NCBI GenBank assembly: GCA_041640655.1
Contig: JBEPZV010000001.1
Span: 154,845-218,844 of the forward strand
Direction: 5' to 3'
DNA length: 64,000 bases
DNA from: a bacterium
GTDB taxonomy: Bacteria; Acidobacteriota; Blastocatellia; HR10
A program made the translations under genes and the position numbers. Below the pieces are notes generated by a model. That model was given only the letters and a program-made list of their open reading frames with translations, was not told where the DNA came from and did not search any database. Positions 33,331 through 56,688 of the stretch are shown in pieces (positions within the stretch are counted from its first letter, which is position 1; every line of letters starts with the position of its first letter).

Positions 33331-36300
33331 TTACACCTTCACCACGTTCACGCGCGTGTCGTAGAACGAGACGCTGCCGCCGACGGTGTCAACCATGCAC
33401 GTGTTCTTCAAGTAGTCGTCCACGCGCATGGCCGCATTGGCGTGGACGCCCTGAGCGCGACGCTCGTCGCCGGGAATGCGCACACCGTCAATCATGATGT
33501 CGCTTGAGCCGACGGCCCAGTGGCCAAAGCCCAGCGCAAAGCTGACCACTCCAGGACGTATTCCCAGGACCGGTTTGACCGTGCCGATCATCGGCACGCG
33601 CCGTCCGTTCTTCAGATCCCACACCCCATTGGGATTCGTCGCCGAGACGATCTTCACCCGGTCACCGTCTGCCAACCCCATTCGGTACGCGTCCTCAACG
33701 TTCATCAAGACGAAGTTCTCCGGCATCAGATCGAGCAGCCAGTAATCCACCACCGTGCGCGATTTGGTGTGGAAGATCTCGCGGTGCGTGATCAGATGCA
33801 GGGCGAACCCTTCATCCCTGACCTCGCGCCCCAGCGCATCGCGAATGGGCAGGTACACGGCTACGCCCGGCAGGTACTCTCCCGTCATGGCGCTCCTGGT
33901 GGTCGCCACTTTCTCCAGGTAAATGCTGGCCAGCTTGCCGTACTTGGATTTCGCCTGATCGCCGACCCAAGCATCGCTGTAGTTCTCGAAGCGCCCCCCG
34001 CGATTGAGCACGTAGATGACCTTGCGCCACCACCGGGAGCCGACGATCTGCTCCCATCGCGCGGGATCGAAGACCGTTGGCGGCAAGTGCCGCCGGGCTT
34101 TCAGGAACAGCTCGACCTCCTCATCGCTGGCATCCGGCACCGCATCCGTGCCATCGGATTTGTCGCCGAAGGCGATGTTGGCGACCACGCGGAGATGAAA
34201 ATCCTCCGGACGCTTCAAATCTTTCCCCGGCTCGAATCCGTTCGGACCGAATCCCGGCAATCCCATCTTCTCGGCCAGGCCGAGCAACAAGGCTTCCAAC
34301 GAGAGCGGCATCTCCTCGCCGAACACGGTGACGGTTTCCGTGAGCGGTGCGACGACCGGCTGGCGCACCGGCGAAACCTTCTGCGGAATGGAGGGATGCG
34401 AGCCGTGAAATTCCCAGCGCTCCAGGTAGGAGAGGTCGGGGAAGATATAATCGGCGTACATCGAGGTCTCGCCGATGATGATGTCGCTGGCCACGATGAG
34501 GGGAATCTTGTTCGGATCGGCGAGGATCTCGATGTTGGTGTGACCGGCCGGCAGCGCATAGACCGGCGATCCCATGTAGATGAAGAGCGCCTTGATGGGA
34601 TAGGGATAGCCATCACCTGCTGACGGGATGATCTCCTGATAAATGTCGCTCGCAAACGGATACCAGTTGCGCGGTGCCGGATAGCCCGAGAAGAGGGTCG
34701 TCTTCTCGTAATTCACCTCATGCCGGATGATACTGATCCCAAACGGCGTCAGCTTCGCCGGATGCTTGCCCAGGTTGAACGGCTTGCCCGGCGTCGAACC
34801 CATCTGATCATACGTCCCACCGCCATAGATCATGCCGCCTTTCCAATCGAAGTTACCGATGAGCAGGTTGACGGTCATCACCGCCAGCACGTTGTAGAAC
34901 CCGTTGGTGTGCTGTGCGACGCCGCGATGCGGCTCCATGACGGCGCGTTTGCCGTGAGCGGTGAACTCGCGAGCGAGATCAACGATGTCTTGAGCAGCAA
35001 TGCCGCAGATCTGGGCCCACTCCTCAATCGTTCGCGAGGCCGCCGATTCGTAAACGAGTTGCAGCGCGCTCTTGACGCGAATGCCGCCGACCACCGCATC
35101 GACAAAGAGGTCGCCCTCCACCACCGTCTGCTCATCGTCAACCTTGAACGCCCGTGGCTGGCCATTTCGGAGCACGACGAAACTATCGGCGTCGCCCAGT
35201 CCAATTTCATCGGCTCGCAGGAATTTCGAGGGCCGCCCATCGGCCTCGATCTTGACGAGCCAGGACGCATTGGTCCAGGTCGGTTCATTGTCGGCTCTGG
35301 CCGCGCCTCGGTTGGCGTTCTCCAGGAACCTTCGATCATACCGCTCGTTTTCGATGATCCAGCGGATCATGCCCAGGGCGAGAGCCGCTTCCGTGCCCGG
35401 TTTGATCGGCACCCACTTCCAGGCTTTCGCGGCGGTCTTGGAGAAACGGGGATCAACAACGGCGATCTTCAGCCGGTTGTCCACGGCCCCTTTGGTGATC
35501 TTCCCGGCCTTGAACGGCGGGCCGTAGTTGGCTTCCAGCGGGCTCGCGCCGATGTAGATGATGAACTCGGCGTGGGCCGTGTCCGCCATCCAGTAGGCTT
35601 TGCGCCCGCCCGTCCATTTGCCGCCGGTGTACTGATCGCTCATCGCCTTGCCGGTGAAATAGAGCGACCCCTGACACACCGTCGTGTGGCCGTGCGCGTT
35701 GATCGAACCGAAGCTATCGCGGACGAACCGGCTGATGAATTCCGCCCTTCCGGCTTTGAGTCGGCCCCACATGAAGACGAGTTGATTATTCTTCGGGCCG
35801 AGATCGGGATGATCGGGGTCAATCAGCTTGTCCAAGTGCGCGGCGTACTTGGCCTTGAACTCCTCGACGGTCATTTTCTTGTCCCAGATCCGGGCCACAT
35901 CATCGGCCATGGATTTCATCAACGCCGGGTCGCGCACGGCCCACAGCTCCCGCAGTCCGGTGACCACGCGATTCTCTTCACCGGGGACATGGGCGAACAG
36001 CAGGCCGCCGTTGACGATCTCCTCGATGGCTTGTTCAAACGGAATCGTCATCCACTTGTTCTCGCCGCGACGGCCCGCTCGCTTGAGCACTTTGACGACA
36101 CGATACGGATCGTAGTGCGTTTGAATGCCCGCCTGACCTTTGGGGCAGATGTGTCCGTCCACGGTGGCCATGTCCAGCGGCGAGCTGTCATACGCCACAT
36201 GCGGCCACATCGCGCGCGGCCCGTAGGGGCTGCCGTCAATCTTCACCACCACGCCGTCGAGAATCTTGGCTTTGATCTCGCAGCCGGTGTTGCACTGGAG

Positions 36301-36555
36301 GCAAGTGGTGTAGAGGACATTCTCCGCCTTCGCCAGTTCGTACTCCGGTCCCGGAGCCTGCGCCTGAGCCGGCGCGAAGATGTTGTGCATCCATTTCGCT
36401 CGGCTGGCCAGGAGCGCGGAGCCACCGAGCAGGGCCGAGGTTTTCAGCACAGCTCGCCGCGTCGCGCAAAAGGTCGGATCACTGATGTTCTCGCTCGACG
36501 GCGTCGGCGACGAGTTTTGAGAAGCGGTGCTGTCGGTGAGCATTCTCTCTTTCAT
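33331..36555 (-). CDS. molybdopterin oxidoreductase catalytic subunit (PsrA/TtrA/ArrA-type), TAT-exported
   Basis: Twin-arginine signal TRRAVLKTS; 4Fe-4S motif C-x2-C-x3-C (CLQCNTGC); about 1075 aa. Start at MKERML after AAGGAGG. Confidence 0.8.
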   Translation of the reverse strand: MKERMLTDSTASQNSSPTPSSENISDPTFCATRRAVLKTSALLGGSALLASRAKWMHNIFAPAQAQAPGPEYELAKAENVLYTTCLQCNTGCEIKAKILDGVVVKIDGSPYGPRAMWPHVAYDSSPLDMATVDGHICPKGQAGIQTHYDPYRVVKVLKRAGRRGENKWMTIPFEQAIEEIVNGGLLFAHVPGEENRVVTGLRELWAVRDPALMKSMADDVARIWDKKMTVEEFKAKYAAHLDKLIDPDHPDLGPKNNQLVFMWGRLKAGRAEFISRFVRDSFGSINAHGHTTVCQGSLYFTGKAMSDQYTGGKWTGGRKAYWMADTAHAEFIIYIGASPLEANYGPPFKAGKITKGAVDNRLKIAVVDPRFSKTAAKAWKWVPIKPGTEAALALGMIRWIIENERYDRRFLENANRGAARADNEPTWTNASWLVKIEADGRPSKFLRADEIGLGDADSFVVLRNGQPRAFKVDDEQTVVEGDLFVDAVVGGIRVKSALQLVYESAASRTIEEWAQICGIAAQDIVDLAREFTAHGKRAVMEPHRGVAQHTNGFYNVLAVMTVNLLIGNFDWKGGMIYGGGTYDQMGSTPGKPFNLGKHPAKLTPFGISIIRHEVNYEKTTLFSGYPAPRNWYPFASDIYQEIIPSAGDGYPYPIKALFIYMGSPVYALPAGHTNIEILADPNKIPLIVASDIIIGETSMYADYIFPDLSYLERWEFHGSHPSIPQKVSPVRQPVVAPLTETVTVFGEEMPLSLEALLLGLAEKMGLPGFGPNGFEPGKDLKRPEDFHLRVVANIAFGDKSDGTDAVPDASDEEVELFLKARRHLPPTVFDPARWEQIVGSRWWRKVIYVLNRGGRFENYSDAWVGDQAKSKYGKLASIYLEKVATTRSAMTGEYLPGVAVYLPIRDALGREVRDEGFALHLITHREIFHTKSRTVVDYWLLDLMPENFVLMNVEDAYRMGLADGDRVKIVSATNPNGVWDLKNGRRVPMIGTVKPVLGIRPGVVSFALGFGHWAVGSSDIMIDGVRIPGDERRAQGVHANAAMRVDDYLKNTCMVDTVGGSVSFYDTRVNVVKV

Positions 36556-36568
36556 CGTCACCCCCTCC

Positions 36569-37516
36569 TTATCGGTGACACACGCGGCAGGATAGCAGTC
36601 GGCGCACATTGGGCAATTCGTCCTCGATATAGAAGACGCGCGGCTGAGTCCCGGCGCTGGCCTTCACCTGCATCACCTTGTGCGTGGCCAGCAATTCGGA
36701 GACGAGACTCTGCGGATCATTCCTGTCGCCGAAGGACATCGCCCCGCCGATGCAGGTGGTCACGCAGGCCGGCAACATCCCGGCGTTGAGCCGATGCAAA
36801 CAGAAGTGGCACTTGCGCGCGCGGCCGACCGGCGTCTGACCGCCCGCGCGCGTGTACTCGCCTTCGTATTCGTAGAACCTGCGCGTCTCGTAGGGCTGCG
36901 TCCCGCCGGGTGTATCGCTCGTGTAGAAATCACCGTCGTCGAAATAGAGGGCCGTGTATGGACAGGCCTGACGCGCGGCCTCGAACGCTTCGCGCGAAGT
37001 GAATTTCGTGTAATCAATCGCCACGATGCCGTCGGGCCGCTTGGTGATCGCCCCCGGCGGGGCCGCTCTCATACAAGGCGGGTTGTCGCATTGCATGCAG
37101 TTGGTCGGCATGAACACGCGATTGAGGTTCGGGTACGTCCCGAATTCGATTTCGGGAACCGTTCGATAGGAAACGCCCGGCGGCGTCACATTCTCGGCTT
37201 TGCACGAGACGACGCACGCCTGACAACCGATGCAACGGCGCGGATCAATCACCATCACCCAGCTTCGCTCGGCGACCGGCTTGGCCAACGCCCGCTTCAA
37301 ATCTTGTTGCATGCGTAAAAGGGCATTTTCGATCTGGGCCTGGTCGAGTCGGGTCTCTCGGGCCAGACCGGCAGCGGCTGTCTTCAGCGATGCGCGGTTG
37401 TCCCGGGCGACTTCGGCCAGTAGCGCTCCGGCCGCTCCCACCCCCACCAGTTTCAAGAACTTCCTCCTTTTGGCACGGCGCGTAGGCTCGTTCATCGTCG
37501 CCTCCTTCTGTGCCAT
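36569..37516 (-). CDS. 4Fe-4S ferredoxin-type iron-sulfur (beta) subunit of molybdopterin oxidoreductase, TAT signal
   Basis: RRKFLKLVGVGAA TAT motif; multiple CxxCxxCxxxCP clusters. Confidence 0.8.
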   Translation of the reverse strand: MAQKEATMNEPTRRAKRRKFLKLVGVGAAGALLAEVARDNRASLKTAAAGLARETRLDQAQIENALLRMQQDLKRALAKPVAERSWVMVIDPRRCIGCQACVVSCKAENVTPPGVSYRTVPEIEFGTYPNLNRVFMPTNCMQCDNPPCMRAAPPGAITKRPDGIVAIDYTKFTSREAFEAARQACPYTALYFDDGDFYTSDTPGGTQPYETRRFYEYEGEYTRAGGQTPVGRARKCHFCLHRLNAGMLPACVTTCIGGAMSFGDRNDPQSLVSELLATHKVMQVKASAGTQPRVFYIEDELPNVRRLLSCRVCHR

Positions 37517-39138: not shown

Positions 39139-39166
39139 TTGACAGGAGATCGGGGCGTGCTATAAT
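39139..39166 (+). promoter_or_regulatory. consensus sigma70-type promoter TTGACA-N16-TATAAT
   Basis: cTTGACAggagatcggggcgtgcTATAATtg, immediately upstream of the truncated P-type ATPase at the GC-content transition. Confidence 0.4.
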
Positions 39167-39289
39167 TGTTTTGCCAAACGAAAATAAGTTTTATTGTACG
39201 AAACATGAAACGGCTGCGCGCGACGTCGGATCGGTACGTGGTCGAGGCCGTTGTGAAGGCGCTCGAGCTGTTGGATGCCTTCCAAGAGG

Positions 39290-40266
39290 CCATCGAAGTG
39301 ATGCGGAAAGTGGACACGCTCATCGGGGATAAAACGGGCACGCTGACGGAGGGCAAGCCCAAACTCGTCACGGTGGTTCCCGCAGAAGGCTGGGACGAGC
39401 GGACGGTGCTGCGACTGGCCGCCAGCTTGGAGCGCGGCAGCGAGCATCCACTGGCGGCAGCCATCGTCGCGGGAGCGCGCGAGCGGGCGGTTGAGCTGAC
39501 CGACGCGGAGTCCTTTGAATCAGTCCCGGGCAAGGGCGTGAAGGGTCGAGTTGACGGTTGTGCCGTCAGTTTGGGCAATCACAAGCTGCTCGGCGATCTC
39601 GGGATTGATCCGGACGATCTGACGACGACAGCGGAGGCCTTGCGGGCCGACGGTCAAACGGTGATGTTCCTGGCGGTAGAAGGCGCGGTGGCCGGTCTGC
39701 TCGGTGTGACTGACCCGATCAAGGCGACGACGCCGGAGGCTATTCGGCAGCTTCACGACGAAGGCATCCGCATCGTCATGGTCACCGGCGACAATCATAC
39801 GACGGCACAGGCGGTCGCCGGGAAGCTCAATATTGACGAGGTGGTCGCCGAAGTCCTGCCCGACCAGAAGGTCGAAGTGGTCAAGAAGCTCCAGGCCGAA
39901 GGCCGAATTGTGGCGATGGCCGGGGATGGCATCAACGATGCTCCGGCGTTGGCTCAAGCTCACGTGGGGATTGCCATGGGCACGGGCACGGATGTGGCGA
40001 TGGAGAGCGCGGGAGTGACATTGGTCAAGGGAGACCTCCGGGGCATTGTCCGGGCGCGGCGTCTGAGCCGGGCGACCATGCGCAACATCAAAGAGAACCT
40101 TTTCTTCGCCTTCATCTACAGCTTGCTCGGCGTGCCGATTGCGGCCGGAGTGCTCTATCCGTTCTTCGGCATCCTGCTCAGTCCGATCATCGCGGCGGCG
40201 GCGATGAGCTTCAGTTCGGTGTCTGTAGTGGGCAACGCGCTGCGGCTGCGGCGGGTGCGCTTATAA
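39290..40266 (+). pseudogene. heavy-metal P-type ATPase, 5'-truncated (C-terminal half only)
   Basis: Homology starts at the phosphorylation motif DKTGTLT and continues through [10 protein letters not shown] and the C-terminal TMs. No N-terminal metal-binding, TM or actuator domains; the first ~40 codons of ORF 39166 are unrelated. Confidence 0.7.
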
Positions 40267-46680: not shown

Positions 46681-47685
46681 ATGAGACCAGATAGAAGAAC
46701 CTTTCTAAAATGGAGTATTTCGGGGACCACGTTTTTCGCCGCAGCCTCTTTGCTTGATTTACGTGGAGACCGAGCGGCGGCTGTCGTAGGAACCCTGAGC
46801 GAAGCTCATGCAAGCGCCAGGCGCCCCTTGTTTGTTGCCCCGCAACGCGAATTCGTTCTTCGTGTGCGTGAGGGATTCCGCCGGATGGTGGATGGCCGCA
46901 GCCTCTACGCGTGGGGATATACAGATGAGAGTGGTGTGATTCAAGGCGTCGGACCGCCGCTCACGGTTCGTGAGGGTGAGCGAATCACAGTGACGCTGGT
47001 GAATGAGGGCCGCGATGGGCATAGCTTCCATATCAAGGACATTCTCTCAGATCAAACGGTGGTTCCGCCGGGAGGGCAACATACGTATGAGTTCATGGCT
47101 CCGCTGGCGGGGACTTACCTCTACTACGATTCGGCCAATGATCCGCTTGGTCGGGCGCTGGGGCTGTGCGGCGCATTGGTGGCGTTGCCTGCTGATGGCC
47201 GTCAGACAGCGTGGACTGGCGGCCCGGCGTTCGATCAGCAATTCCTCTGGGTGCTCAGCGAGCTGGATGAGCGATGGAACGTGGCCCGGCAAAACGCCCA
47301 ACCGGTCGACCTGCGGGACTATCGGCCCAACTATTTCTTCATCAATGGCCGGAGTTTCCCCGAGACCATGTCTGATCCAAACGCGATGATGGCAGGTCGC
47401 GTCGGGCAGACCGTTTTGATCCGCACCGTCAACGGCGGACTCATCTCGCACGCGATGCACTTTCACGGGTATCACTTCAGAATCATCGCCCGAAATGGGC
47501 AGCCGCAAGCTGCGTTCATCGAGAAAGATACTTTCGTCGTCTATCCCGGCGAAACGATGGACGTGCTCGTCACACTCGACCAGCCGGGCCGATACCCGGT
47601 GCATGATCACTCGCTGATGGCGGTGACCGCCAATGGCGTTTATCCCAACGGCATGATGGCCGAATTTGATGTGAGGGAGGCGTAA
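46681..47685 (+). CDS. multicopper-oxidase-family cupredoxin protein, TAT signal
   Basis: RRTFLKW TAT motif; HxH copper motifs (HSFH, HFHGYH, HDH). Confidence 0.7.
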   Translation: MRPDRRTFLKWSISGTTFFAAASLLDLRGDRAAAVVGTLSEAHASARRPLFVAPQREFVLRVREGFRRMVDGRSLYAWGYTDESGVIQGVGPPLTVREGERITVTLVNEGRDGHSFHIKDILSDQTVVPPGGQHTYEFMAPLAGTYLYYDSANDPLGRALGLCGALVALPADGRQTAWTGGPAFDQQFLWVLSELDERWNVARQNAQPVDLRDYRPNYFFINGRSFPETMSDPNAMMAGRVGQTVLIRTVNGGLISHAMHFHGYHFRIIARNGQPQAAFIEKDTFVVYPGETMDVLVTLDQPGRYPVHDHSLMAVTANGVYPNGMMAEFDVREA

Positions 47686-47687
47686 CG

Positions 47688-48569
47688 ATGGCAATTCGAG
47701 ATTTCACACTCTTTGCTGGTTTCGGTAGCACGACGATGCCCGACGGAAACACGTTTCCGGTTTGGGGCTTCTCCACCACGCCTGGACGGGTAGTCGTTCC
47801 TGCTCCCACGCTCACGGTGAACGAAGGCGACTGGGTCAGGCTCACGCTGCGCAACATGACGATGATGGAACACACCATTCATCCCCACGGCCTCGATGTT
47901 GACACACTCAACGACGGAGTTCCCCACACTTCCTTCACCGTGCCGCCCATGGGCAGTTACACCTATCAGTTCACGGCCAGGCACGCCGGAACGTATGCTT
48001 ATCATTGTCACGTCAACACCGTGCTTCATCAGCAGATGGGGATGTATGGCGCGTTCATTGTGATGCCTGCTGATGGAAGTCAGCGGGCATGGACGGGCGG
48101 GCCTGCGTTTGACAAGCAATACGTTTGGGTGCTGAGCGAATTCGATAGCGCGTGGCATCGAGCGGCGGGCATGATGGGTGGTCCTCCCGTGGGCAACGTC
48201 AATTTCGCTTCCTACAATCCCGACTACTTTCTTATAAACGGCAAGGCTGATCCGGAGACGCTCAGCGACGCGTCGACGGCCATCGTCGCGGATCGAGGCC
48301 AACGGGTGCTCGTCCGGTTGATCAACATGGGGTACTTAAACCAACGAGTCTCGCTTGGCGCATTGCTGTTTCGAGTGATCGCCTCCGATGGCCGACCTCT
48401 GCCGCGAAGTTATGAAGCGAGCCGTATCGTTCTCGCTCCGGGTGAGCGATATGATGTTCTTGTGGCGGTGCCTCAAGAGCCAGGCGTGCATACAGCGCAG
48501 GTGGATTATCTGTCGCTGTACGACGGCTCAGTCTTAGGAGTAGCCAGAACCCAGATTCGGGTCGCGTGA
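47688..48569 (+). CDS. multicopper-oxidase-family protein (paralog, no signal peptide)
   Basis: HPHGLDV and HCHVNTVLHQQM (type-1/trinuclear Cu ligands); shares AWTGGPAFD block with upstream paralog. Confidence 0.7.
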   Translation: MAIRDFTLFAGFGSTTMPDGNTFPVWGFSTTPGRVVVPAPTLTVNEGDWVRLTLRNMTMMEHTIHPHGLDVDTLNDGVPHTSFTVPPMGSYTYQFTARHAGTYAYHCHVNTVLHQQMGMYGAFIVMPADGSQRAWTGGPAFDKQYVWVLSEFDSAWHRAAGMMGGPPVGNVNFASYNPDYFLINGKADPETLSDASTAIVADRGQRVLVRLINMGYLNQRVSLGALLFRVIASDGRPLPRSYEASRIVLAPGERYDVLVAVPQEPGVHTAQVDYLSLYDGSVLGVARTQIRVA

Positions 48570-48595
48570 CGCGGCTCGACAGAAGAGGTGAAACC

Positions 48596-48937
48596 ATGAA
48601 AGAAATCAAAGCGATCATTCAACCGTTCATGCTCTCGAAGGTGATTAACGCCTTGAAAGAGCTGGAAGGATTGCCCGGTCTGACTGTCTCTGAGGTGAAA
48701 GGCTTTGGAAAAAGTCAGGCGGAGGATGCGGAACACAAGATCGTTGAAGACTTCGTCGGGTATGTCAAGAAAGCCAAGCTGGAGATCGTCGTCCCCGATC
48801 ATCTGGTCGGAGCGGTCGCTGAGATCATCCAGACGCACGCACACACAGGCAATCCGGGCGACGGGAAAATCTTCATCTCGACAGTGGATGATGTGATTAA
48901 GATCCGCACCGGCGAACGAGGTGAAGGAGCGATCTAG
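48596..48937 (+). CDS. P-II family signal-transduction protein (GlnB-like)
   Basis: MKEIKAIIQPF...TVSEVKGFG...IVV...TG..GDGKIFI matches the PII fold; located in the metal efflux operon. Confidence 0.7.
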   Translation: MKEIKAIIQPFMLSKVINALKELEGLPGLTVSEVKGFGKSQAEDAEHKIVEDFVGYVKKAKLEIVVPDHLVGAVAEIIQTHAHTGNPGDGKIFISTVDDVIKIRTGERGEGAI

Positions 48938-48999: not shown

Positions 49000-49386
49000 A
49001 TGAACGCATTTGAGCGAACAGTCACAACTGACAAATCGTTTGAAGAGGCCGTTGCGGCCATTGAGCAGAAGGCCGCTGAGAAGGGTTTCCGGGTGCTGCA
49101 CACGCACGATGTGGCGGCGACGTTGGCGGAAAAGGGCTTCCCACGCGAGCCCCTGAAGATTATTGAAATCTGCAACGCCAAGTACGCGAGCCAGGTGCTC
49201 AACAGGGATGTGAAGATTTCCCTCATGCTCCCCTGCCCGATCAGTGTGTATGTCGAAGGCGGCCAGACGCACATCAGCACGCTGCTCCCGACTTCGATTG
49301 TGCAGTTCTTTCCCCACGCCGGGATTGAGGATCTCGCGTCGGAGGTGGAGAGCATTGTGCTCCGGATTATAGAAGAGGCGCGTTGA
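49000..49386 (+). CDS. DUF302 domain protein
   Basis: 128 aa; family commonly found beside metal-resistance genes. Confidence 0.55.
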   Translation: MNAFERTVTTDKSFEEAVAAIEQKAAEKGFRVLHTHDVAATLAEKGFPREPLKIIEICNAKYASQVLNRDVKISLMLPCPISVYVEGGQTHISTLLPTSIVQFFPHAGIEDLASEVESIVLRIIEEAR

Positions 49387-49391
49387 GGAAA

Positions 49392-51305
49392 ATGAAAGAG
49401 GATAAGAAAATGAAAGAGGACAAGAAGGAAGAAATCTTTGAGGGGAAATGGTACGCTCACCCCCCAATGCGAAACGCATTGATAGCCGCCGTGCTCGCAG
49501 GCACCGCATTTGGGTTGGCTCATCTTGGGAGTATTCCTTCGCTGGTCGAGACCGCTCTCTATCTGGTGGCCATCCCATTGGGTGGCTACCACTGGGCTCG
49601 CGAAGGGATTGAAGAGTTGATCGAAGAGAACGAGATCGGCATAGAAATCCTGATGCTGGCGGCTACGCTTGGTTCAGCGGTGTTGGGCATGTTGGATGAA
49701 GCCGCCTTCCTGGTCGTCCTCTACGGGGCGGCTGAGGGATTGGAGGAGTACACCTACGCCAGAACCAGGGCTTCCATCAGGAAACTTCTCGACCTCGCTC
49801 CCAAAGAGGCGAGAGTCATCAGGAATGGGGAAGAAATAATCATACCCGCTGAAGAGATAGCTGTCGGAGATGTCTTCGTCGTCCGGCCCGGCGAGTCCAT
49901 CCCAACAGATGGCATTATTGTCAAAGGTCGGTCCAGCATCAATGAGGCTCCTGTGACCGGCGAATCCATCCCGGTTGAAAAGAAAGAGGGAATGAAGGTC
50001 TTTGCCGCTACTATCAATCAAGAAGGAGCGTTGGAGATCAGGGCCACAGCGACGTTTGAAGATAATACCCTCGCCAAAATGGTCCATCTGGTCGAGGAAG
50101 CACAGGAACAAAAGAGCAAGACTCAGCTCTTCATTGAAACGTTTGGGCGGAGATACTCTCCGTTAGTCCTCTTGAGTTCCTTGCTTCTCATCGTCATCCC
50201 TCCTCTGATCGGAGCGTCTTTTTCGGAATGGGCAACAAGGGCGGTGGTCCTTTTAGTCGCCGCTGCCCCTTGTGCTTTGGTGATGTCTACGCCCGTCGCC
50301 ATTGCCGCTGGGATTGGTCGGGCGGGCCGATCTGGCGTGCTGATTAAGGGAGGAATTCATCTCGAAAATCTGGGCAAGATCAAGGCGGTGGCGTTCGATA
50401 AGACAGGAACGCTCACCAGAGGCAAACCCATTGTAACCGACGTGGTGCCCCTGAATGGAGACGAATCTCAACTGCTGGCGTTCGCTTACAGTGTGGAGAG
50501 ATTTTCTGAGCATCCCCTGGCCCAGGCCATTGTGGAAAAGGCGAAAGAATCTCATGTCGAGGCTCTGGAAGCCACCGACTTTAGCGCTCTTGTTGGTTCG
50601 GGCGCGAAGGCCAAGATTGCCGGCAGAACGATTTACGTTGGCAAACCAGGGCTATTTGAAGAGCTGGGTCTGAAGGTCCGGGGCATTCCAGACGCTGAGA
50701 GGCTCAGGGACGAAGGGAAGACGGTGATTCTCGTGGGCACAGAAGAAAGTATTGCAGGGTTCATTGCCATCCGAGATGAGGTGAGACCCCAAGCCAAAGA
50801 GGTCGTAGATCAGCTTCACCGGATGGGTGTGAGAGTCGTCATGCTGACTGGCGACAATGAGGTGACGGCCAAAGCGATTGCTAAGGAACTGGGTATAGAT
50901 GAAGTGAAGGCCGATCTCAAGCCAGAAGATAAGATCAAAGCGGTGGAAGAATTGGAAAAGAAGTATGGGTCTGTGGCGATGGTTGGTGATGGTATCAACG
51001 ATGCGCCGGCATTGGCCAGAGCGACCGTTGGCATAGCTATGGGCGTAGCCGGGACCGATGCCGCCATCGAAGCCGCCGATATTGCTCTTATGGCCGATGA
51101 TCTCACCAAGGTGGTTTATGCGATCAATCTTGGCAAGAGAGCCAGACGGATCAGCTTGCAGAACATTGTCTTTTCGCTCCTCATTCTGGCGGTTCTGATA
51201 CCCTCAGCTCTCATTGGCATCATGACAGTGGCCATTGCGGTTGTGGCGCATGAGGGCTCAGAGCTTTTGGCGGTGGCCAATGGTTTGCGGGTAGCAAGGG
51301 GGTAG
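49392..51305 (+). CDS. heavy-metal translocating P1B-type ATPase (P1B-4-like; APC transmembrane motif, HEG C-terminal motif)
   Basis: [19 protein letters not shown]6 APC, C-terminal HEGSELL, no N-terminal HMA domain. An 18-nt tandem duplication encodes MKEDKK x2 at the N-terminus. Confidence 0.85.
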   Translation: MKEDKKMKEDKKEEIFEGKWYAHPPMRNALIAAVLAGTAFGLAHLGSIPSLVETALYLVAIPLGGYHWAREGIEELIEENEIGIEILMLAATLGSAVLGMLDEAAFLVVLYGAAEGLEEYTYARTRASIRKLLDLAPKEARVIRNGEEIIIPAEEIAVGDVFVVRPGESIPTDGIIVKGRSSINEAPVTGESIPVEKKEGMKVFAATINQEGALEIRATATFEDNTLAKMVHLVEEAQEQKSKTQLFIETFGRRYSPLVLLSSLLLIVIPPLIGASFSEWATRAVVLLVAAAPCALVMSTPVAIAAGIGRAGRSGVLIKGGIHLENLGKIKAVAFDKTGTLTRGKPIVTDVVPLNGDESQLLAFAYSVERFSEHPLAQAIVEKAKESHVEALEATDFSALVGSGAKAKIAGRTIYVGKPGLFEELGLKVRGIPDAERLRDEGKTVILVGTEESIAGFIAIRDEVRPQAKEVVDQLHRMGVRVVMLTGDNEVTAKAIAKELGIDEVKADLKPEDKIKAVEELEKKYGSVAMVGDGINDAPALARATVGIAMGVAGTDAAIEAADIALMADDLTKVVYAINLGKRARRISLQNIVFSLLILAVLIPSALIGIMTVAIAVVAHEGSELLAVANGLRVARG

Positions 51306-51430
51306 AGGCGAACCATGAGTTCAAAGTGCGCATTGACCGCTTCCTGACAGGCAAAGGAACACGCATGCAGGGTTGTTGGACATGGCGGAGATCAAGTCGC
51401 TTTTGTCGCTGGACACTTTCACTTGCCGTC

Positions 51431-51460
51431 TCTAGAATAGTTGAGCAATTGTTCAATTAT
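51431..51460 (+). promoter_or_regulatory. imperfect inverted repeat, putative ArsR/SmtB operator
   Basis: ATAGTTGAGCAATTG / CAATTGTTCAATTAT centred on CAATTG, about 20 nt upstream of the CadC-like gene start. Confidence 0.35.
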
Positions 51461-51475
51461 GATTATGAGGTGAAT

Positions 51476-51874
51476 ATGCCGAAAGCGACTGTCACTAAGA
51501 AGCGAACCAGCGCCCGGCTCCCAGTGCGCGACACGTGCGAGCAAGTTTGCTACGATGCGCCGCTTGTGCGCACGCTCAAGCGAGAGATGCTCGCCGACGA
51601 TACTGTGATGGAACTGGTGGCGACCTTCGAGGTTTTGGCCGACCCAACACGCCTCCGAATTATCTACGCGCTCGGCCGGGGCGAATTGTGCGTGTGCGAC
51701 CTGGCGCATGTGCTGGGGATGAGCTTGTCTGCCACGTCGCACCAACTGCGGCGACTGCGCGATCTTCGGCTGGTCAAGTACCGATACGAGGGCCGGATGG
51801 CCTTCTATTCGCTCGATGACGAGTTCATCAAGAAGATGGTGGAAGATGCGGTGCAGCACGTAGAGAGTGATTGA
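51476..51874 (+). CDS. ArsR/SmtB family metal-sensing repressor (CadC-like)
   Basis: LADPTRLRIIYAL helix-turn-helix and CVCDL metal site; GAGGTG ribosome-binding site. Confidence 0.8.
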   Translation: MPKATVTKKRTSARLPVRDTCEQVCYDAPLVRTLKREMLADDTVMELVATFEVLADPTRLRIIYALGRGELCVCDLAHVLGMSLSATSHQLRRLRDLRLVKYRYEGRMAFYSLDDEFIKKMVEDAVQHVESD

Positions 51875-51875
51875 G

Positions 51876-52994
51876 ATGACGAATCAAGAGCCGATTGAGA
51901 AAATCCGATCCGAACTGCAAGAGGGCATGAGCCTGGCCAAATGCCGGAAGTGTGGATGCATGAAGGAGACCCTGGAAAATCTCGGGACTTCGCTTTCTTC
52001 AATCGAAACTCCGGCTTCTTCAGATTTGCGTCAACAGATCGGAGCCTGGCTAAAGCAAATGGAACCGATCAAGTATGCGTGCCTGGGGTGCGAGTATTGC
52101 TTCCCGGCGGTGGCGATGAATGTTTTTCACCAAGCCTTTCCTGAAGCCGCACAGGGTCCATCGCTAGGGTGCGCCTTTGAAGTGAGAGTGCGAACCTGGC
52201 CCCCTGTGCCAGGGGAATATTTCGCTTTCTGTGATGGCCCAGCTTGTCCAGTCGCCGTCTCCACTCTGGCCAGTGTGGAACTGGCCGAAACGCTGGCCGG
52301 CATAAGACCAAAAGAGCTTTGCATTGTCGGCAAGACAGAGACAGAAAACATCGGCATTGACAAGGTCATCAAGAACACGATCACCAATCCCACGATTCGC
52401 TTTCTTCTGTTGGTGGGGGAAGACCCTCAAGGCCATCAGCCCGGCAGGACATTTCTTGCTCTGTCGAAAAATGGTGTTGATGAGAACGGGCGGGTGATAG
52501 GCTCTCCTGGCAAGCGCCCTATTTTAAGAAACGTGACCCCTGAAGAGGTGGAAACCTTTCGGAAACAGGTGCGGGTTGTGGACCTAATTGGATGTGAAGA
52601 TGTGAAGACCATCATTGAGAAACTCAAAGAACTCTCACAGAGTCTCAGCCTGTCCTGCAACTGTGCGGAGTCCACTAAGGAAACCATGCCTGTTCAGAAT
52701 TCCACCGTGCCAGTCATTCAGGCAGAAGAGCCCACGAAAGTTGAGATGGATAAGGCCGGCTATTTCGTGATCATTCCACAGCCAGAGAAGGGGATCATCG
52801 CGGTAGAACATTACTCTTACGACAACCGGCTTTTAAGAGTCATTGAGGGCAAGAATGCCAGAAGCATCTCCTGGACAATCATTGAAAACGGTTGGGTGAC
52901 GCAGCTCTCTCACGCCGCTTATCTCGGAAGGGAATTGGCTAAGGCAGAACTTTCAATGAGACTGAGATTCAAATACATTCAGGACGGAGCATAA
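51876..52994 (+). CDS. MtrA-like (tetrahydromethanopterin S-methyltransferase subunit A family) corrinoid-type protein with N-terminal Cys-rich domain and DUF4346-like C-terminus
   Basis: N-terminal CRKCGC...CLGCEYC cluster; central region resembles bacterial MtrA homologs; family assignment by eye only. Confidence 0.45.
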   Translation: MTNQEPIEKIRSELQEGMSLAKCRKCGCMKETLENLGTSLSSIETPASSDLRQQIGAWLKQMEPIKYACLGCEYCFPAVAMNVFHQAFPEAAQGPSLGCAFEVRVRTWPPVPGEYFAFCDGPACPVAVSTLASVELAETLAGIRPKELCIVGKTETENIGIDKVIKNTITNPTIRFLLLVGEDPQGHQPGRTFLALSKNGVDENGRVIGSPGKRPILRNVTPEEVETFRKQVRVVDLIGCEDVKTIIEKLKELSQSLSLSCNCAESTKETMPVQNSTVPVIQAEEPTKVEMDKAGYFVIIPQPEKGIIAVEHYSYDNRLLRVIEGKNARSISWTIIENGWVTQLSHAAYLGRELAKAELSMRLRFKYIQDGA

Positions 52995-52999
52995 AAACG

Positions 53000-53686
53000 A
53001 TGGAAAGGGGAACTTCAACCATAGTGAAACAAGTTTTGGACGCGCAGCGCCAACATTGGGAAAATACATTTTCAAAGAAGCCTGATATGTTTGGGAGCGA
53101 GCCCAGTGATTGCGCTCGAAAAGCAGCAGAGCTATTCAAAAAAGAAGGTCAAACCAAGATTCTCGAACTCGGAGGCGGACAGGGGCGAGATACCATCTTC
53201 TTTGCTCAAAGTGGTTTTCACGTTCACGTACTTGATTATTCTGGGAACGCAGTTGAAGCCATCACCCAAAAAGCCCGAGCATTGGGCTTGTCTCAGTCCG
53301 TCAGAGCGATATGTCACGATGTTAGAGAACCCCTCCCCTTCGATAATGAATCTTTCGATGGTTGCTATTCGCATATGTTGTATTGTATGGCGCTCACAAC
53401 TTCGGAGCTCGAATTTCTTTCAGACGAAGTCAGGCGGGTATTAAAACCAGGTGGACTCAACATTTACACAGTTAGGCATACAGGTGACCCCCATTATGGA
53501 ACAGGCATTCATCGAGGGGAGGGTATGTATGAGGTTGACGGATTTATTGTGCATTTTTTTAGTAAAGAAAAAGTACAACATTTAGCCAAAGGATATGAAA
53601 TCGTTGGCGTTGATGAATTTGAAGAAGGTGGACTTCCCAGAAAACTATTCCGAGTAACACTGAGAAAGAAAGGAGGCGAATCATGA
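53000..53686 (+). CDS. class I SAM-dependent methyltransferase (TehB/thiopurine-MT-like)
   Basis: ILELGGGQGRD motif I, acidic motif II VLDYS, 228 aa, several Cys. Confidence 0.75.
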   Translation: MERGTSTIVKQVLDAQRQHWENTFSKKPDMFGSEPSDCARKAAELFKKEGQTKILELGGGQGRDTIFFAQSGFHVHVLDYSGNAVEAITQKARALGLSQSVRAICHDVREPLPFDNESFDGCYSHMLYCMALTTSELEFLSDEVRRVLKPGGLNIYTVRHTGDPHYGTGIHRGEGMYEVDGFIVHFFSKEKVQHLAKGYEIVGVDEFEEGGLPRKLFRVTLRKKGGES

Positions 53687-54189
53687 CGAAGACAAAACTT
53701 GCAGTGCTCACTACCGCCTGCTTAATCTTAGGTGGCATTTGGCTGTCCAGTTATGCTCAACAGAGCGAAGTGCACAAAAAAGCAACGGAAGGACAGTCTC
53801 AAATGCAAATGGGACCGGAGATGATGCAGCAAATGATGAAGGACATGGGCAACAATCCTATGATGGCCCAATGCCAGCACATGATGCGCACCGTCATCTA
53901 TCCCGATAGTGCATCGAGCATCCTTGCCTTGAAGGAACAACTTGACCTTTCCGAAAAGCAGACGAAAGAGCTCATAGCCATTCAGGAAAAGGCCAATGCC
54001 GAGGCAAAGAGAGTCCTTACCGAGGAGCAGGGTAAGAAGTTTGAAGCGCTGACCAAAGACTGGAAGCCACAATCCATGATGCAATGCATGCAAACCATGA
54101 TGTCTCAGATGCAGAAGATGATGGGAGGCCAGATGCCTGCCTGTCCTATGATGCAAATGATGCAAGGAAAGGAGCGACGAACAAAGTAA
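53683..54189 (+). CDS. periplasmic Met-rich LTXXQ-motif protein (Spy/CpxP/ZraP-like)
   Basis: Signal peptide; MxxM-rich N- and C-terminal tracts (MQMGPEMMQQMMKDM, MMQCMQTMMSQMQKMM); central LSEKQ...LTEEQ helices. Confidence 0.6.
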   Translation: MTKTKLAVLTTACLILGGIWLSSYAQQSEVHKKATEGQSQMQMGPEMMQQMMKDMGNNPMMAQCQHMMRTVIYPDSASSILALKEQLDLSEKQTKELIAIQEKANAEAKRVLTEEQGKKFEALTKDWKPQSMMQCMQTMMSQMQKMMGGQMPACPMMQMMQGKERRTK

Positions 54190-54302
54190 CGGGACAAAAG
54201 TTCGGGGCGCTTTTTGCTGGTGCCTTGACAGCTATTCAAGAGCGTTCCTTTGGTTTAAAAGTGTTCCCGAACTTTTGTCCACCTACTAAGGAGCATTGAA
54301 TC

Positions 54303-54728
54303 ATGAAGCGAGTCATCCTCGTGCTGATCATTGTGGCTGTAGCCGCCGTCGTGACCGTGAAGCTGGTAAGCAGAAAGCAAAAGCCTCAACCGCCATCGGC
54401 AGTGGTGACCGCACCATCATCGGCCAGCACCCAAGGCAAGCCAATTCTTTATCTGTTTCACGATCCGTCTGATCAGGATGCCGGTTGTCGGCGCATTTAC
54501 GCCTATCTGGATCAGGCCGAGAGAGAACTGGCTGGGCAAGTGGAAGTGCGGCGGCCGGATGTTGAGCGTGAGAAGAATCTTGTCGAGCAGTTTCAGGTGC
54601 GGGTGCTGCCGACGGTCTTGCTCGTATCGCCAACCGGTGCTGTTGAGCAACGCTTTGAAGGTGAGGACAGTTCAACCGCCGAGCACATCGAGCAGGCGCT
54701 CGAACGATTGAAAGGGATGCCACAGTGA
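54303..54728 (+). CDS. membrane-anchored thioredoxin-fold protein
   Basis: N-terminal TM followed by a thioredoxin-like fold; paired with the CcdA gene by ATGA overlap. Confidence 0.45.
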   Translation: MKRVILVLIIVAVAAVVTVKLVSRKQKPQPPSAVVTAPSSASTQGKPILYLFHDPSDQDAGCRRIYAYLDQAERELAGQVEVRRPDVEREKNLVEQFQVRVLPTVLLVSPTGAVEQRFEGEDSSTAEHIEQALERLKGMPQ

Positions 54729-55384
54729 ATCCACCGAACATTGAAGAGATTTCTTTGACAGCTTTTGTGCTGACCTTTATGGGCGGGATCGTGACCGGCT
54801 TCAATCCCTGCTGCTATACGATGGTCCCAGCACTGGTTGGCTACCTGAGCGGGTACTGTGAGCCATCGGTGAAGCGATGCGCGTGGCTGTCGGGCTGGTT
54901 TGCCATCGGGCTTGCTACGGCCACTGCGATGTTGGGATTAATCGCTGTGCTTGCTGGTGGAATATTCGGCGGCGTGCATCCAGCGGTGCGTTATCTTCTC
55001 GCCGTGATACCGATTGTAATGGGTTTGCACCTGTTGGGGATTATCAATATCAAAGTGCCAGCGGTTCGCCATTGGCGGCCTATCCGCTCTGGTACACTCG
55101 GCGCGTATCTCACCGGCTTGCTATTTTCTCTGGCGATCCTTCCTTGTGCTACTCCTATTTTGGCTTCAATTCTCGCGTATACTGCCAGTCATGGCAGTGT
55201 GCTTTATGGCTCAGCATTGCTCTTCATCTATGGCACAGGAATCGGTGTGCCAATTGTACTTGTCGGTACAAGCCTCGGCATTCTTTCATCACTGCGACTA
55301 CTGGCTTGCTGGTGGTCGGTGGTTCACCGCCTCAGCGGCGTAATCCTCATTGGGCTGGGCTTCTACTTGCTCTGGCAAGCATAA
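54725..55384 (+). CDS. ccdA: cytochrome c biogenesis protein CcdA / DsbD transmembrane-domain family
   Basis: Six TMs, conserved Cys pair (FNPCC...C); 219 aa. Confidence 0.8.
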   Translation: MNPPNIEEISLTAFVLTFMGGIVTGFNPCCYTMVPALVGYLSGYCEPSVKRCAWLSGWFAIGLATATAMLGLIAVLAGGIFGGVHPAVRYLLAVIPIVMGLHLLGIINIKVPAVRHWRPIRSGTLGAYLTGLLFSLAILPCATPILASILAYTASHGSVLYGSALLFIYGTGIGVPIVLVGTSLGILSSLRLLACWWSVVHRLSGVILIGLGFYLLWQA

Positions 55385-55611
55385 TTCGCTATGGACCACA
55401 AAGAAAAAAGCTGGTCGTTCCAGGCAATAGCCACACTCACCACAACGCCAGCGGGCAGACGGTCAAAGACCTTGTCTGGGGGAACCCTTTGAAGAAATGG
55501 CTCGACATGATGCGCCAATTCTGGGCGAGATTTGTCCTGACGGCTCCGATTCTCCACATCCACTGGCCCGATGAGTTGACCATCTCCCAAGTATCGCTCT
55601 AACGTCGTATC

Positions 55612-56688
55612 GTGGGGCAGCTCGCCGCCTATACGCTCTTTCTGTTTAATGGTCGTCTGGCCTTCCAACTGGCGGACGCTGTGGGAACCGGATTTACCAA
55701 CTACATCTCGAACGCCTCGGTGAATGATGGGCAGTGGCATCATGTTGCGGCGACGGTTCAGCGAACGAGCGGGCCCCCCATGCTCACGCTCTACGTGGAT
55801 GGCATGTCAGTTCTCACCAATCCGAATCCGAGAATGGGCAATCTGACGAACACGAATCCATTATGGATCGGACGGCGGCATCCTGTTCCTGGCGCTACGA
55901 CGGACCGGTTCTTCGTCGGAGACATTGACGAAGTGGAACTCTTCAACCGGGCGCTGACTCAGCAAGAGATTCAAGCCATCGTCCAGGCGGGCGCGGCGGG
56001 CAAATGCAAGGGGTGCATCGAAGGCATGAAGTGGAACGATGCCAACGGCAACGGTGTGAAAGATCCCAATGAGTCAGGGCTGTCGGGCTGGACGATTCAG
56101 CTCAGCGGTCCTTCTGGTGTGATTGCCACGACCACCGGCACCGGCGGCACCTATCGCTTCTGCGGATTGCCGCCGGGCACCTACACGGTGGCAGAAGTGT
56201 TAGTGTTGCAGCCTTTCTGGGTGCGCACGTTCCCGCCGCCACCGGGCACGCACACGGTCACGCTCGGCGTCAATCAGACGGTGTCCAACATCAACTTCGG
56301 CAATCGGCGGGTGATCGTTCTGCCTGATTTCGTGGTGAAGAATCTGCGCGTGCTGCCGCCCGTGATTCCGCGGGGAGGGACGGCCATTGTTTCGTTTGAC
56401 ATCGTCAATCAAGGTGAAGGGGAAGCCGGTCCGGCGACCCATCAGGTGCGGCTCTTCATCCGGCGTCCCGGTCTTCCCGACCTTGATGTGTTGCTCGCCA
56501 CGGTGGCGACGGGAACGCTGGCTGCCGGCGGCTCGCAATCGTTCACCGTGGCGATCCGGTTGCCGCAAGAGGTTCCGACCGGCACGGCCCTGATTCGCGT
56601 CCTGGCCGATGCAGGGAGAACGGTCAACGAGTCGAACGAGGAGAACAACGTGGCCGAAGTTCAGATCACCATCACCGGAGGACCGTAG
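55612..56688 (+). CDS. LamG-like / Cna-B / CARDB domain surface protein, N-terminally truncated fragment
   Basis: Begins inside a concanavalin-like domain (no signal peptide or start context); an out-of-frame LamG-like stretch lies upstream at 55400-55600; sits at the GC transition. Confidence 0.45.
   Translation: MGQLAAYTLFLFNGRLAFQLADAVGTGFTNYISNASVNDGQWHHVAATVQRTSGPPMLTLYVDGMSVLTNPNPRMGNLTNTNPLWIGRRHPVPGATTDRFFVGDIDEVELFNRALTQQEIQAIVQAGAAGKCKGCIEGMKWNDANGNGVKDPNESGLSGWTIQLSGPSGVIATTTGTGGTYRFCGLPPGTYTVAEVLVLQPFWVRTFPPPPGTHTVTLGVNQTVSNINFGNRRVIVLPDFVVKNLRVLPPVIPRGGTAIVSFDIVNQGEGEAGPATHQVRLFIRRPGLPDLDVLLATVATGTLAAGGSQSFTVAIRLPQEVPTGTALIRVLADAGRTVNESNEENNVAEVQITITGGP

Follow-up and report, generated by a model that had tools for sequence, protein, structure and literature searches.

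A Cys-rich, MtrA-like protein family encoded beside metal-resistance genes hints at B12-based handling of toxic metals

An MtrA-like gene in a metal-sensor operon

The stretch of DNA analysed here, referred to as the window, comprises 64,000 nucleotides of an acidobacterial genome (Blastocatellia, lineage HR10; GenBank assembly GCA_041640655.1, contig JBEPZV010000001.1, positions 154,845 to 218,844 of the forward strand), and positions given below are those of the window unless another locus is named. Positions 51410-54189 read as one forward-strand operon behind a promoter-like site and a palindrome, in a metal-resistance island of lower GC content. The operon opens with the gene for an ArsR-family repressor (51476..51874, 132 amino acids (aa)). 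The ATG of the second gene, which encodes an MtrA-like protein (51876-52994, 372 aa), lies 1 nt past the repressor's stop codon. A class I S-adenosylmethionine (SAM) methyltransferase (53000..53686, 228 aa) starts 5 nt past the stop codon of the MtrA-like gene, and its own stop codon is overlapped by the start of an open reading frame (ORF) for a Met-rich protein (53683..54189, 168 aa; overlap ATGA). A previous reading of this DNA, made from the sequence alone and called here the original prediction, had described a metal-sensing repressor, an upstream palindrome, a Cys-rich MtrA/DUF4346 protein and a methyltransferase, and had proposed that the last two form a metal(loid) methylation pair. 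All of the described elements are found at this locus; the proposed pairing is discussed further below.

Domain architecture and the predicted corrinoid site

The MtrA-like protein is made up of an N-terminal Cys-rich helical domain (aa 1-105, 51876..52190), an MtrA-type Rossmann corrinoid-binding domain (aa 106-255, 52191..52640; PF04208, 6.6e-37) and a DUF4346 domain (aa 291-370, 52746..52985; PF14251, 8e-23), all on the forward strand. Both profiles score well above their cut-offs (127 bits against 25 for MtrA, 81.5 against 29.6 for DUF4346), and the full DUF4346 model (1-86) is covered. The AlphaFold model (pLDDT 73.6) has three separate domains, namely the helical N-domain, the Rossmann domain and a C-domain of three strands and two helices. 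This last is the DUF4346 domain, modelled at a pLDDT of about 80-90, for which a Foldseek search of solved structures returned no structural relative. The original description, a Cys-rich N-terminus, an MtrA-like corrinoid region and a DUF4346-like tail in a single protein, agrees with the profile matches and the modelled domains.

The only relatives of the protein among solved structures are MtrA proteins. MtrA structure 5LAA is found at 3.5e-31 by phmmer and at 4.6e-13 by Foldseek, with 44% identity over about 150 residues and a TM score of 0.79 on the target. In MtrA, His84 is the cobalt ligand and is hydrogen-bonded to Glu54, while Asn55 contacts the corrin (PMC4915002). In the HMMER alignment these three residues correspond to H187 (codon 52434-52436), E157 and N158 of the window protein, which are invariant in 70 of 70 aligned homologues. 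Corrinoid binding is therefore well supported by homology, and the MtrA or cobalamin signature on which the original prediction depended is present and conserved. The meander of MtrA, with the consensus GAIPF/Y-x-EN, appears in the window protein as GKRPILRN, in which the Gly, Pro and Asn are kept and the other positions differ.

The protein is nevertheless not a true MtrA subunit of the Mtr complex. It scores 121 bits against the TIGR01111 cut-off of 249, has DUF4346 in place of the C-terminal membrane helix, and there are no mtr genes (mtrEDCBAFGH) among its neighbours. The closest full-length model is NF002128 (PRK00964.1-6, “MtrA”), which has the same architecture; residues 6-372 align to model positions 12-370 of 390, and the score of 442 bits against a cut-off of 568 marks the protein as a relative below the NCBI membership threshold. 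Judged by its sequence, then, it is MtrA-like rather than MtrA: the fold is that of corrinoid methyl carriers, while the architecture and the functional setting are new.

The Cys-rich domain and a probable selenocysteine

The N-terminal domain carries two Cys triads, C23xxC26xC28 (KC23RKC26GC28) and C69xxC72xxC75 (AC69LGC72EYC75), plus C99. The six triad cysteines are invariant in 70 aligned members, save for one sequence that is gapped in the first triad. The domain has no match in Pfam or the PDB. It was found in 232 of 1.84 billion representatives and is nearly exclusive to the MtrA-like family: every longer hit that was checked has the MtrA domain as well, the remainder being either short fragments or small ORFs that stand alone.

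In three species, an in-frame TGA falls exactly at the codon corresponding to Cys69 (52080-52082 in the window). One is a delta-proteobacterium (L037:8205-8207) and two are Syntrophaceae (L040:2450-2452 and L045:3829-3831). In each, YAC-LGC-xxC becomes YT-TGA-LGC-xxC and the flanks are fully conserved on both sides. At least 13 metagenomic cluster representatives are fragments of 67-81 aa that stop exactly at residue 68, as is expected since gene callers would halt at a TGA in the position of Cys69. A hairpin 3' of the TGA could not be distinguished from those of shuffled sequences. The TGA probably encodes selenocysteine (Sec) in these three species, giving a UxxCxxC form, and the family would then be a probable new selenoprotein family. 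It is not listed in a 2026 review of prokaryotic selenoproteins, in which many of the recent additions concern Hg or As and which does list selenocysteine forms of both HgcA and HgcB (PMC13188914). Exchange of Cys for Sec marks a chemically active residue, one that binds metal or is redox-active. This argues against a purely structural or Fe-S scaffolding function of the N-domain, a cofactor role still being compatible with it.

A further in-frame TGA was seen in an Anaerolineae member (L041:8763-8765), where a Cys-rich linker joins the MtrA domain to DUF4346 (PCG-TGA-GEC). It could be a selenocysteine, a pseudogene or an assembly error.

Metal sensor and control region

The repressor is a winged-helix protein (HTH_5, 8.2e-18; NF033788, 1.2e-26, 92 bits against a cut-off of 55) whose best solved relatives are SmtB (2.7e-24) and CadC (5.1e-19; 1U2W, aligned from residue 18). 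It has an N-terminal Cys pair, C21xxxC25 (DTCEQVCYD), and a CVC site, C71VC73 (ELCVCDL), in helix alpha-3; where SmtB has His106 in its alpha-5 site, the window repressor has Phe, as read directly from the alignment. The N-terminal pair and the CVC site make up the thiolate-rich alpha-3N arrangement of CadC. The HTH_5 fold, the alpha-3 CVC and the N-terminal pair are features of the CadC/SmtB group, and the original assignment to a CadC/ArsR-type repressor with a CVC site holds.

The sole promoter-like site in 51250-55700 is TGGACA-17-TAGAAT (51410..51438, forward strand), which lies within the 170-bp gap before the repressor gene. It is a consensus match of the sigma-70 type, agreeing at 10 of 12 positions. 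Its -10 element is overlapped by an imperfect 24-bp palindrome, ATAGTTGAGCAATTGTTCAATTAT (51437..51460), with arms that are 87% complementary. The halves, ATAGTTGAGCAA and TTGTTCAATTAT, meet in the CAATTG centre noted in the original prediction, and the core is TGAGCA-AT-TGTTCA. The palindrome occurs once in the window and had no matches in 100 shuffles. We infer that it is a candidate ArsR/SmtB operator; an inverted repeat at the repressor's own promoter is a feature of the CadC/SmtB group.

Distribution and genomic contexts of the family

The MtrA-like family is large, horizontally mobile and uncharacterised. More than 2,685 homologues of the window protein are detectable, of which the top 120 are 67-82% identical to it, and the top homologues come from Acidobacteriota, Thaumarchaeota and unclassified bacteria. 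Family members occur in at least 455 species-representative genomes of bacteria and archaea, including Bacteroidota, Nitrospirota, Chloroflexota, Desulfobacterota, Thermoproteota, Methanoperedenaceae and others. For the survey of contexts, ORFs were called in 80 genome loci and the neighbouring genes were clustered. A strict set of metal(loid) genes (ArsR, P1B ATPase, ACR3, ArsC, ArsM, RND/MFP and CDF) was then scored within four genes of the MtrA-like gene.

The contexts fall into two kinds. In 22 of 75 loci, all from Nitrospirota/Thermodesulfovibrionia and encoding proteins 45-54% identical to the window protein, there is a fixed synteny of MtrA-like gene, parA and parB, and strict metal(loid) genes are found in two of these 22. 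Among the 53 loci outside this parAB subgroup, a strict metal(loid) gene lies within four genes in 24, and ArsR itself in 17; when only the 26 loci with at least three genes on both sides are considered, the count is 16. Outside the Nitrospirota lineage, the MtrA-like gene is found repeatedly under ArsR-, CadC- or CmtR-type sensors and beside P1B ATPases, ACR3, ArsC, ArsM, ArsP-like permeases, and CDF or RND pumps. The link with thiolate-type sensors and metal-resistance genes recurs across phyla, domains of life and plasmids, and the family is not found mainly in cofactor-biosynthesis contexts unrelated to metals.

The Nitrospirota parAB loci (within L049-L084) have further features of their own. 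The MtrA-like gene is directly upstream of parA-parB, and the other flank holds an RNase H-like gene together with genes for a histidine kinase whose tail is rich in Cys and for a coiled-coil protein of 248 aa that carries two CxxC motifs at its C-terminus. Members of this subgroup lack the C119/C124 pair.

Several arrangements illustrate the metal contexts. In ars operons, the gene order is arsM-arsC-aquaporin-MtrA-like in a member of Thermoproteota (L034), ACR3-MtrA-like-thioredoxin-CcdA-ArsP-like-ArsM in Desulfobacterales (L026), and MtrA-like-ACR3-arsC in L011. The Desulfobacterales locus has a thioredoxin and DsbD_TM pair after the MtrA-like gene, as does the window. Blastocatellia have a two-gene cassette of ArsR and the MtrA-like protein, and in an archaeon the gene follows a short P1B ATPase. 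In Bacteroidota/Ignavibacteria (L028, L030, L031, L033 and L076), a CadC-like regulator accompanies a membrane-anchored OB protein and a membrane-fused MtrA-like protein, and four of these loci (L028, L030, L031 and L033) share a conserved upstream palindrome, ATTTTCGCAwATGCGAAAAT. The sensors that accompany the family are of thiolate types: CadC-like with CxxxC and CVC (the window and the five Bacteroidota/Ignavibacteria loci), CmtR-like, and ArsR with CVC and a C-terminal Cys. The Bacteroidota/Ignavibacteria unit consists of five to six genes and also holds a 114-aa protein and an aromatic/Gly-rich 189-aa protein; several of its partners have no family assignment.

Domain fusions link the family with sensors and membranes. 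The HTH domain of ArsR is fused to the MtrA-like protein in P0274, a four-helix membrane domain with the motif GC-x-LLGCCGSP is fused at the N- or C-terminus (P0032, P0363), and a transmembrane helix with an OB domain is fused in P0252 and P0382. The CC-motif membrane domain and the membrane-anchored OB domain also occur as separate adjacent genes (clusters c14 and c4, respectively). The CC motif resembles the CCxxP of MerT and MerF.

The gene is also carried by the Planococcus plasmids pA30H1 and pA26H3 (12.5-16.6 kb), which encode an ArsR/SmtB regulator, an HMA protein, a heavy-metal P-type ATPase and a protein annotated as “DUF4346 domain-containing protein”. The last is the MtrA-like protein, which ends the ArsR-HMA-P-type ATPase operon and is followed by an ISL3 transposase (L180, NZ_MN657150.1, 2441-6825; L182, NZ_MN657143.1, 352-4736). 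Besides the MtrA motifs and DUF4346, the plasmid protein shares the Cys motifs of the N-domain and contains a run of metallothionein-like ACGC(D/N)D repeats. P. kocurii ATCC 43650 has the gene next to ISL3, with no pump alongside.

No description linking the MtrA-like family to metals was found in the literature. Its recurrence beside metal-resistance genes in unrelated microbes hints at a B12-based way of handling toxic metals.

Proposed role and alternatives

The reading that we favour, tentatively and at a little less than an even chance, is that a soft metal(loid) induces the MtrA-like protein and is bound by its Cys/Sec cluster, that a methyl group is exchanged with a His-on corrinoid, and that the product is exported. 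The inducing metal(loid), be it Cd, Pb, As(III) or perhaps Hg or Zn, would release the repressor, and the induced, cytoplasmic protein would hold it on the N-terminal CxxCxC/CxxCxxC cluster, probably with Sec for the first Cys in some species. In the MtrA domain, the His-on corrinoid would then exchange the methyl group with the metal(loid) centre. Either direction can be envisaged: methyl-Co(III) could methylate the metal(loid), or the cobalt centre could take up a methyl group from it. Co-located exporters would handle the product. Methyl transfer to a metal(loid) is plausible from the chemistry of the domains and from genomic context. The SAM methyltransferase would be a separately acquired accessory of the window island and not part of the core; it could use SAM to recharge the corrinoid, or have a substrate of its own. 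The family generally works without such an enzyme. The stronger claim, that the Cys/Sec-rich MtrA-DUF4346 family carries out corrinoid-dependent methyl transfer to or from soft metal(loid)s independently of HgcAB and ArsM, we consider doubtful.

Several observations weigh against methyl exchange with metal(loid)s. Corrinoid binding is, in all members, a prediction from homology. The six N-terminal cysteines are equally invariant in the Nitrospirota housekeeping subgroup and could serve a cofactor rather than a substrate; the N-domain could hold, for example, an Fe-S cluster for reactivation of the corrinoid. These Nitrospirota, with 22 of the 75 loci, are nearly without metal genes, and the closest homologue of the window protein (P0004, 82% identity) is also in a housekeeping context without metal genes. 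The recurrent neighbours of the MtrA-like gene include no methyl donor enzyme that binds pterin or resembles MtrH, and the window lacks the membrane partners c4 and c14 that accompany the family in other phyla. The survey itself is crude in that gene calls were made by a greedy longest-ORF procedure and clusters by BLAST/HMM, and several loci are contigs of metagenome-assembled genomes of short or uneven length.

An alternative, which we judge unlikely, is that the protein handles metals through thiols and selenols or is a redox protein. It might be a chaperone or buffer for ATPases that lack an N-terminal metal-binding domain, or a UxxC/CxxC redox protein in which the corrinoid is an electron mediator or regulatory ligand. 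The gene is recurrently paired with short P1B ATPases (640 aa in the window, 638 aa on the plasmid and 634 aa in the archaeon) that are 38-46% identical over nearly their full length. None of the three begins with an HMA-type CxxC domain, as read directly from the N-terminal sequences. The metallothionein-like CGC repeats of the plasmid homologue, the TGA in place of the first Cys of a CxxC, a pattern shared with selenoproteins that bind heavy metals or act in redox chemistry, and neighbours such as thioredoxin, CcdA, AhpD/CMD, OsmC and DGC proteins all fit such a role. However, it leaves the invariance of E157, N158 and H187 (70/70) unexplained, all MtrA-type domains studied are methyl carriers (PMC4915002), and the Planococcus operon already has a separate HMA chaperone. 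A chaperoning or redox role, if true, would make this the first case of an MtrA fold that does not serve as a methyl carrier.

It is less likely still that the protein is a general housekeeping carrier of one-carbon (C1) units or corrinoid, linked to folate, methanopterin or methionine, that has hitch-hiked into metal islands. The parAB synteny of the 22 Nitrospirota loci, two with nearby metal genes, can be read in this way, as can the position of P0004 between cystathionine beta-synthase and rpmE/prfA (L31, RF1), near IMPDH. The literature, too, treats the MtrA-like genes of non-methanogens as C1 remnants of unknown activity (PMC4915002, PMC11291895). Against this, ArsR within four genes in 17 of 53 non-Nitrospirota loci compares with a chance expectation of about 1% (a rough estimate, not computed), and the protein is fused to an ArsR HTH domain and encoded inside an ArsR-HMA-ATPase unit on plasmids of 12-17 kb. 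Identity across domains of life is very high, as expected of mobile resistance cargo, and C1 or methionine genes do not recur among the neighbours.

The SAM methyltransferase and the question of pairing

The original prediction took the corrinoid protein and the methyltransferase to be one module. In its strict form this would be an obligate two-enzyme relay, in which methyl groups pass from SAM to cobalt and on to the metal(loid), distinct from both ArsM and HgcAB. The methyltransferase is indeed a small class I SAM enzyme (Methyltransf_25, 1.3e-17), as stated. The likeness to TehB/TPMT, in contrast, holds only at the superfamily level: Pfam TehB gives 29 bits (cut-off 20.4), weaker than generic methyltransferase families, and the NCBIfam TehB equivalogs, at 28-35 bits against cut-offs of 218-303, are rejected. 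The enzyme belongs to a family of 6,262 homologues that are 70-84% identical across Marinobacter, Acetohalobium, Marinimicrobia and others and have the invariant motif FDxC122YSHMLYC129MALT. Among solved structures, the closest to it are plant phosphoethanolamine methyltransferases, which are only distantly related (3e-11). The best specific match is to the N-terminal domain of NCBIfam MduS (NF045649, 2.7e-89). The selenoprotein MduS itself is rejected, as the match covers model positions 6-215 of 338 and scores 299 bits against a cut-off of 380; the MduS tail with its two selenocysteines is missing, and read-through of the TGA that ends the methyltransferase gene gives 12 codons and then TAA. 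ArsM is likewise rejected (NF040539, 32.7 bits against 240; NF041537, 19.9 against 510), and the bona fide ArsM proteins of L026 and L034 form a different cluster. So is CpaM, the “corrinoid protein-associated methyltransferase” (NF043040, 42.4 bits against 180, 5e-11).

An obligate relay is improbable on the distribution of the two genes. They are 5 nt apart in one operon in the window, and the weak resemblance to CpaM and the two invariant cysteines beside the substrate-side motif would suit such a relay, as would the occasional presence of ArsC (5/80) or ArsR (4/80) beside the methyltransferase family in metagenome loci. Elsewhere, however, a methyltransferase of this kind adjoins the MtrA-like gene in just one of 74 other genome loci (L044, Syntrophorhabdales), with another five genes away in L076. 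The closest homologues of the MtrA-like protein, P0004, L005 (79% identity) and P0012 (77%), are without one. Seen from the other side, the MtrA-like gene is present beside none of three sampled methyltransferase homologues, which have unrelated neighbourhoods, and in one of 80 methyltransferase-centred metagenome loci (34 of which are at least 4 kb), where it is a 35-residue remnant (L121). These few cases of proximity are above chance by a rough estimate. The GC content at third codon positions (GC3) suggests separate acquisition: it is 0.38 in the methyltransferase gene, whereas the MtrA-like gene has 0.57 and the repressor gene 0.74. With the two genes rarely adjacent elsewhere and mismatched in GC3, the window pair has the look of two cargo genes of metal islands that were brought together locally, in mosaic fashion, although they co-occur above the rough chance estimate, and the methyltransferase is an occasional passenger and not a fixed partner of the family. 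Of the original interpretation, the corrinoid signature and the link to metal contexts are supported; the pair as a module is not.

Last, a role in cobalt or corrinoid homeostasis, in which the protein would sequester, protect or sense cobalamin under an excess of cobalt or competing metals beside a Co/Zn/Cd-type exporter, is highly improbable: the predicted B12 site is kept and the APC and HEGS motifs of the neighbouring ATPase resemble those of P1B-4 (Co/Zn/Cd) pumps, but cobalt sensing is not typical of the thiolate sensors (CadC-, CmtR- and ArsR-like) found with the family, many contexts are arsenic operons, and no cobalamin riboswitch was found in the window.

Surroundings of the operon in the window

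The Met-rich protein that ends the operon has an N-terminal hydrophobic, signal-peptide-like segment, as read directly from its sequence. Its match to the LTXXQ family (CpxP/Spy/ZraP-like, PF07813) is weak and below cut-off (E = 0.016), and the NCBIfam scan gave no match. Downstream, and possibly associated with the operon, is a thioredoxin-fold protein (54303..54728, forward strand; PF00085, 3.8e-06) with an N-terminal hydrophobic segment, a probable membrane anchor. It is followed by a CcdA/DsbD-type transmembrane thiol-disulfide transporter (54725..55384, forward strand; DsbD_TM, PF02683, 1.1e-22). The thioredoxin-fold protein has one Cys (DAGCRR) where CxxC is expected, while its counterpart in the Desulfobacterales locus keeps CxxC.

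Upstream of the repressor gene are, in order, OEP-MFP-RND genes, two multicopper-oxidase ORFs, P-II, DUF302 and the heavy-metal P-type ATPase, in agreement with the metal-resistance island of the original prediction. The DUF302 gene (49000..49386, forward strand; PF03625, 2.4e-17) overlaps the start of the ATPase gene in an upstream transcription unit, and is a recurrent context gene, found within three genes of the MtrA-like gene in four loci. The P1B-type ATPase (49383..51305, forward strand, 640 aa) scores above cut-off with TIGR01525 (612 bits) and with TIGR01512, the “cadmium family” (527 bits). It is without an N-terminal metal-binding domain; its motifs are APC, within the transmembrane region, and HEGS, close to the C-terminus. 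The multicopper oxidase is represented by two successive ORFs (334 and 293 aa, 46681-48937) rather than one, which are followed by the P-II-like protein in the interval that separates the RND pump from DUF302. A 366-aa ORF immediately before the OEP-MFP-RND genes (39166-40266) holds only the HAD/P-domain half of a P-type ATPase and is likely a truncated remnant.

The GC content is 0.49-0.58 across 40-56 kb, against about 0.65 in the upstream 26 kb. Within the island, GC3 ranges from 0.376 for the methyltransferase gene (GC 0.445) through 0.57 for the MtrA-like gene to 0.74 for the repressor gene, with a backbone of about 0.8; the island is a mosaic. A second metal-type unit (30614-32440) consists of an ArsR gene (EVCVCDL), an ArsP_1-family permease gene (PF03773, 2.4e-70, with weak matches to SaoE and SO_0444 Cu/Zn efflux models) and a gene for a Thioredoxin_3 protein. 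Between the two metal-sensor units, on the reverse strand (33331-37516), are the genes of a 1092-aa molybdopterin oxidoreductase and a 315-aa 4Fe-4S dicluster subunit that starts with a twin-arginine-like signal. A paralogue of the MtrA-like protein (P0029, 75% identical; L089:1970-3088) is placed by synteny at about 65-66.5 kb, a few kb beyond the end of the window, anchored on the CBM9/DUF5916 gene at about 60.1-62.4 kb. Its gene has a CMD/AhpD-like gene and one for a multihaem cytochrome as neighbours, and ArsR is not among them.

Significance

To our knowledge, biological methylation of metal(loid)s is carried out by two systems, the SAM-dependent enzymes of the ArsM type and the corrinoid protein HgcA with HgcB. 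We know of no enzyme assigned to the anaerobic demethylation of methylarsenicals and methylmercury, or to the methylation of Cd, Pb, Sb and Bi. The MtrA-like family, with a different B12-binding fold, is a candidate for a third route of metal(loid) methyl transfer. If this were true, it could explain metal(loid) methylation in organisms without hgcAB or arsM, or the oxygen-independent demethylation of methylarsenicals or methylmercury, by a system that is mobile on plasmids and islands and has selenoprotein variants and dedicated membrane partners in many phyla. As the family is routinely annotated as a methanogenesis subunit, the minimum outcome is the correction of a widespread misannotation. 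The small plasmids of cultivable Planococcus offer a plasmid-borne test system.

Comparison with known systems

MtrA (5LAA, 5L8X), a subunit of the methanogen N5-methyl-H4MPT:CoM methyltransferase with cytoplasmic homologues, has the same Rossmann cobalamin domain, about 44% identical over 150 residues, and its His cobalt ligand and Glu/Asn partners are kept in the window protein. Unlike MtrA, the window protein has no C-terminal membrane helix and no mtrB-H genes, and adds the family-specific Cys-rich N-domain and the DUF4346 tail. The family also differs in being under a metal sensor in bacteria and non-methanogenic archaea.

The likeness to HgcAB is one of analogy: a corrinoid protein, Cys-rich metal-binding elements, a membrane domain and an association with soft metals, together with Sec forms, which exist for HgcA and HgcB (PMC13188914) and probably for the MtrA-like family too. 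There is no homology, as HgcA has a CFeSP-type domain with a Cys axial ligand, whereas the MtrA-like family has an MtrA-type domain with His. No HgcA/CFeSP-type corrinoid family was found in the Pfam and NCBIfam scans of the MtrA-like protein, and no ferredoxin family, as would correspond to HgcB, among the scanned neighbours. There is no ferredoxin partner, and the membrane domain of the MtrA-like family is a different one (four-helix, GCCGSP) that is missing from the window.

Of methyltransferases, ArsM shares with the MtrA-like family the theme of methyl transfer and sometimes the operon, along with ArsP-like permease, ACR3 and ArsC. ArsM uses SAM, whereas the MtrA-like protein, which is no relative of it, would work with a corrinoid; the window methyltransferase itself reaches only 20-33 bits with ArsM models (cut-offs 240-510). 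Its likeness to MduS is confined to model positions 6-215, the protein ending at 228 aa without the selenocysteine tail, and that to CpaM is weak and far below cut-off.

In CadC-CadA and SmtB efflux operons, lastly, the repressor controls a pump, while the window repressor's operon carries a corrinoid protein and a methyltransferase, and the pump is in the separate upstream DUF302-ATPase unit, which has no matching operator. The window nonetheless shares with these systems the CadC-like Cys pair and CVC site, a palindromic operator (predicted) that overlaps the promoter, and an adjacent P1B ATPase.

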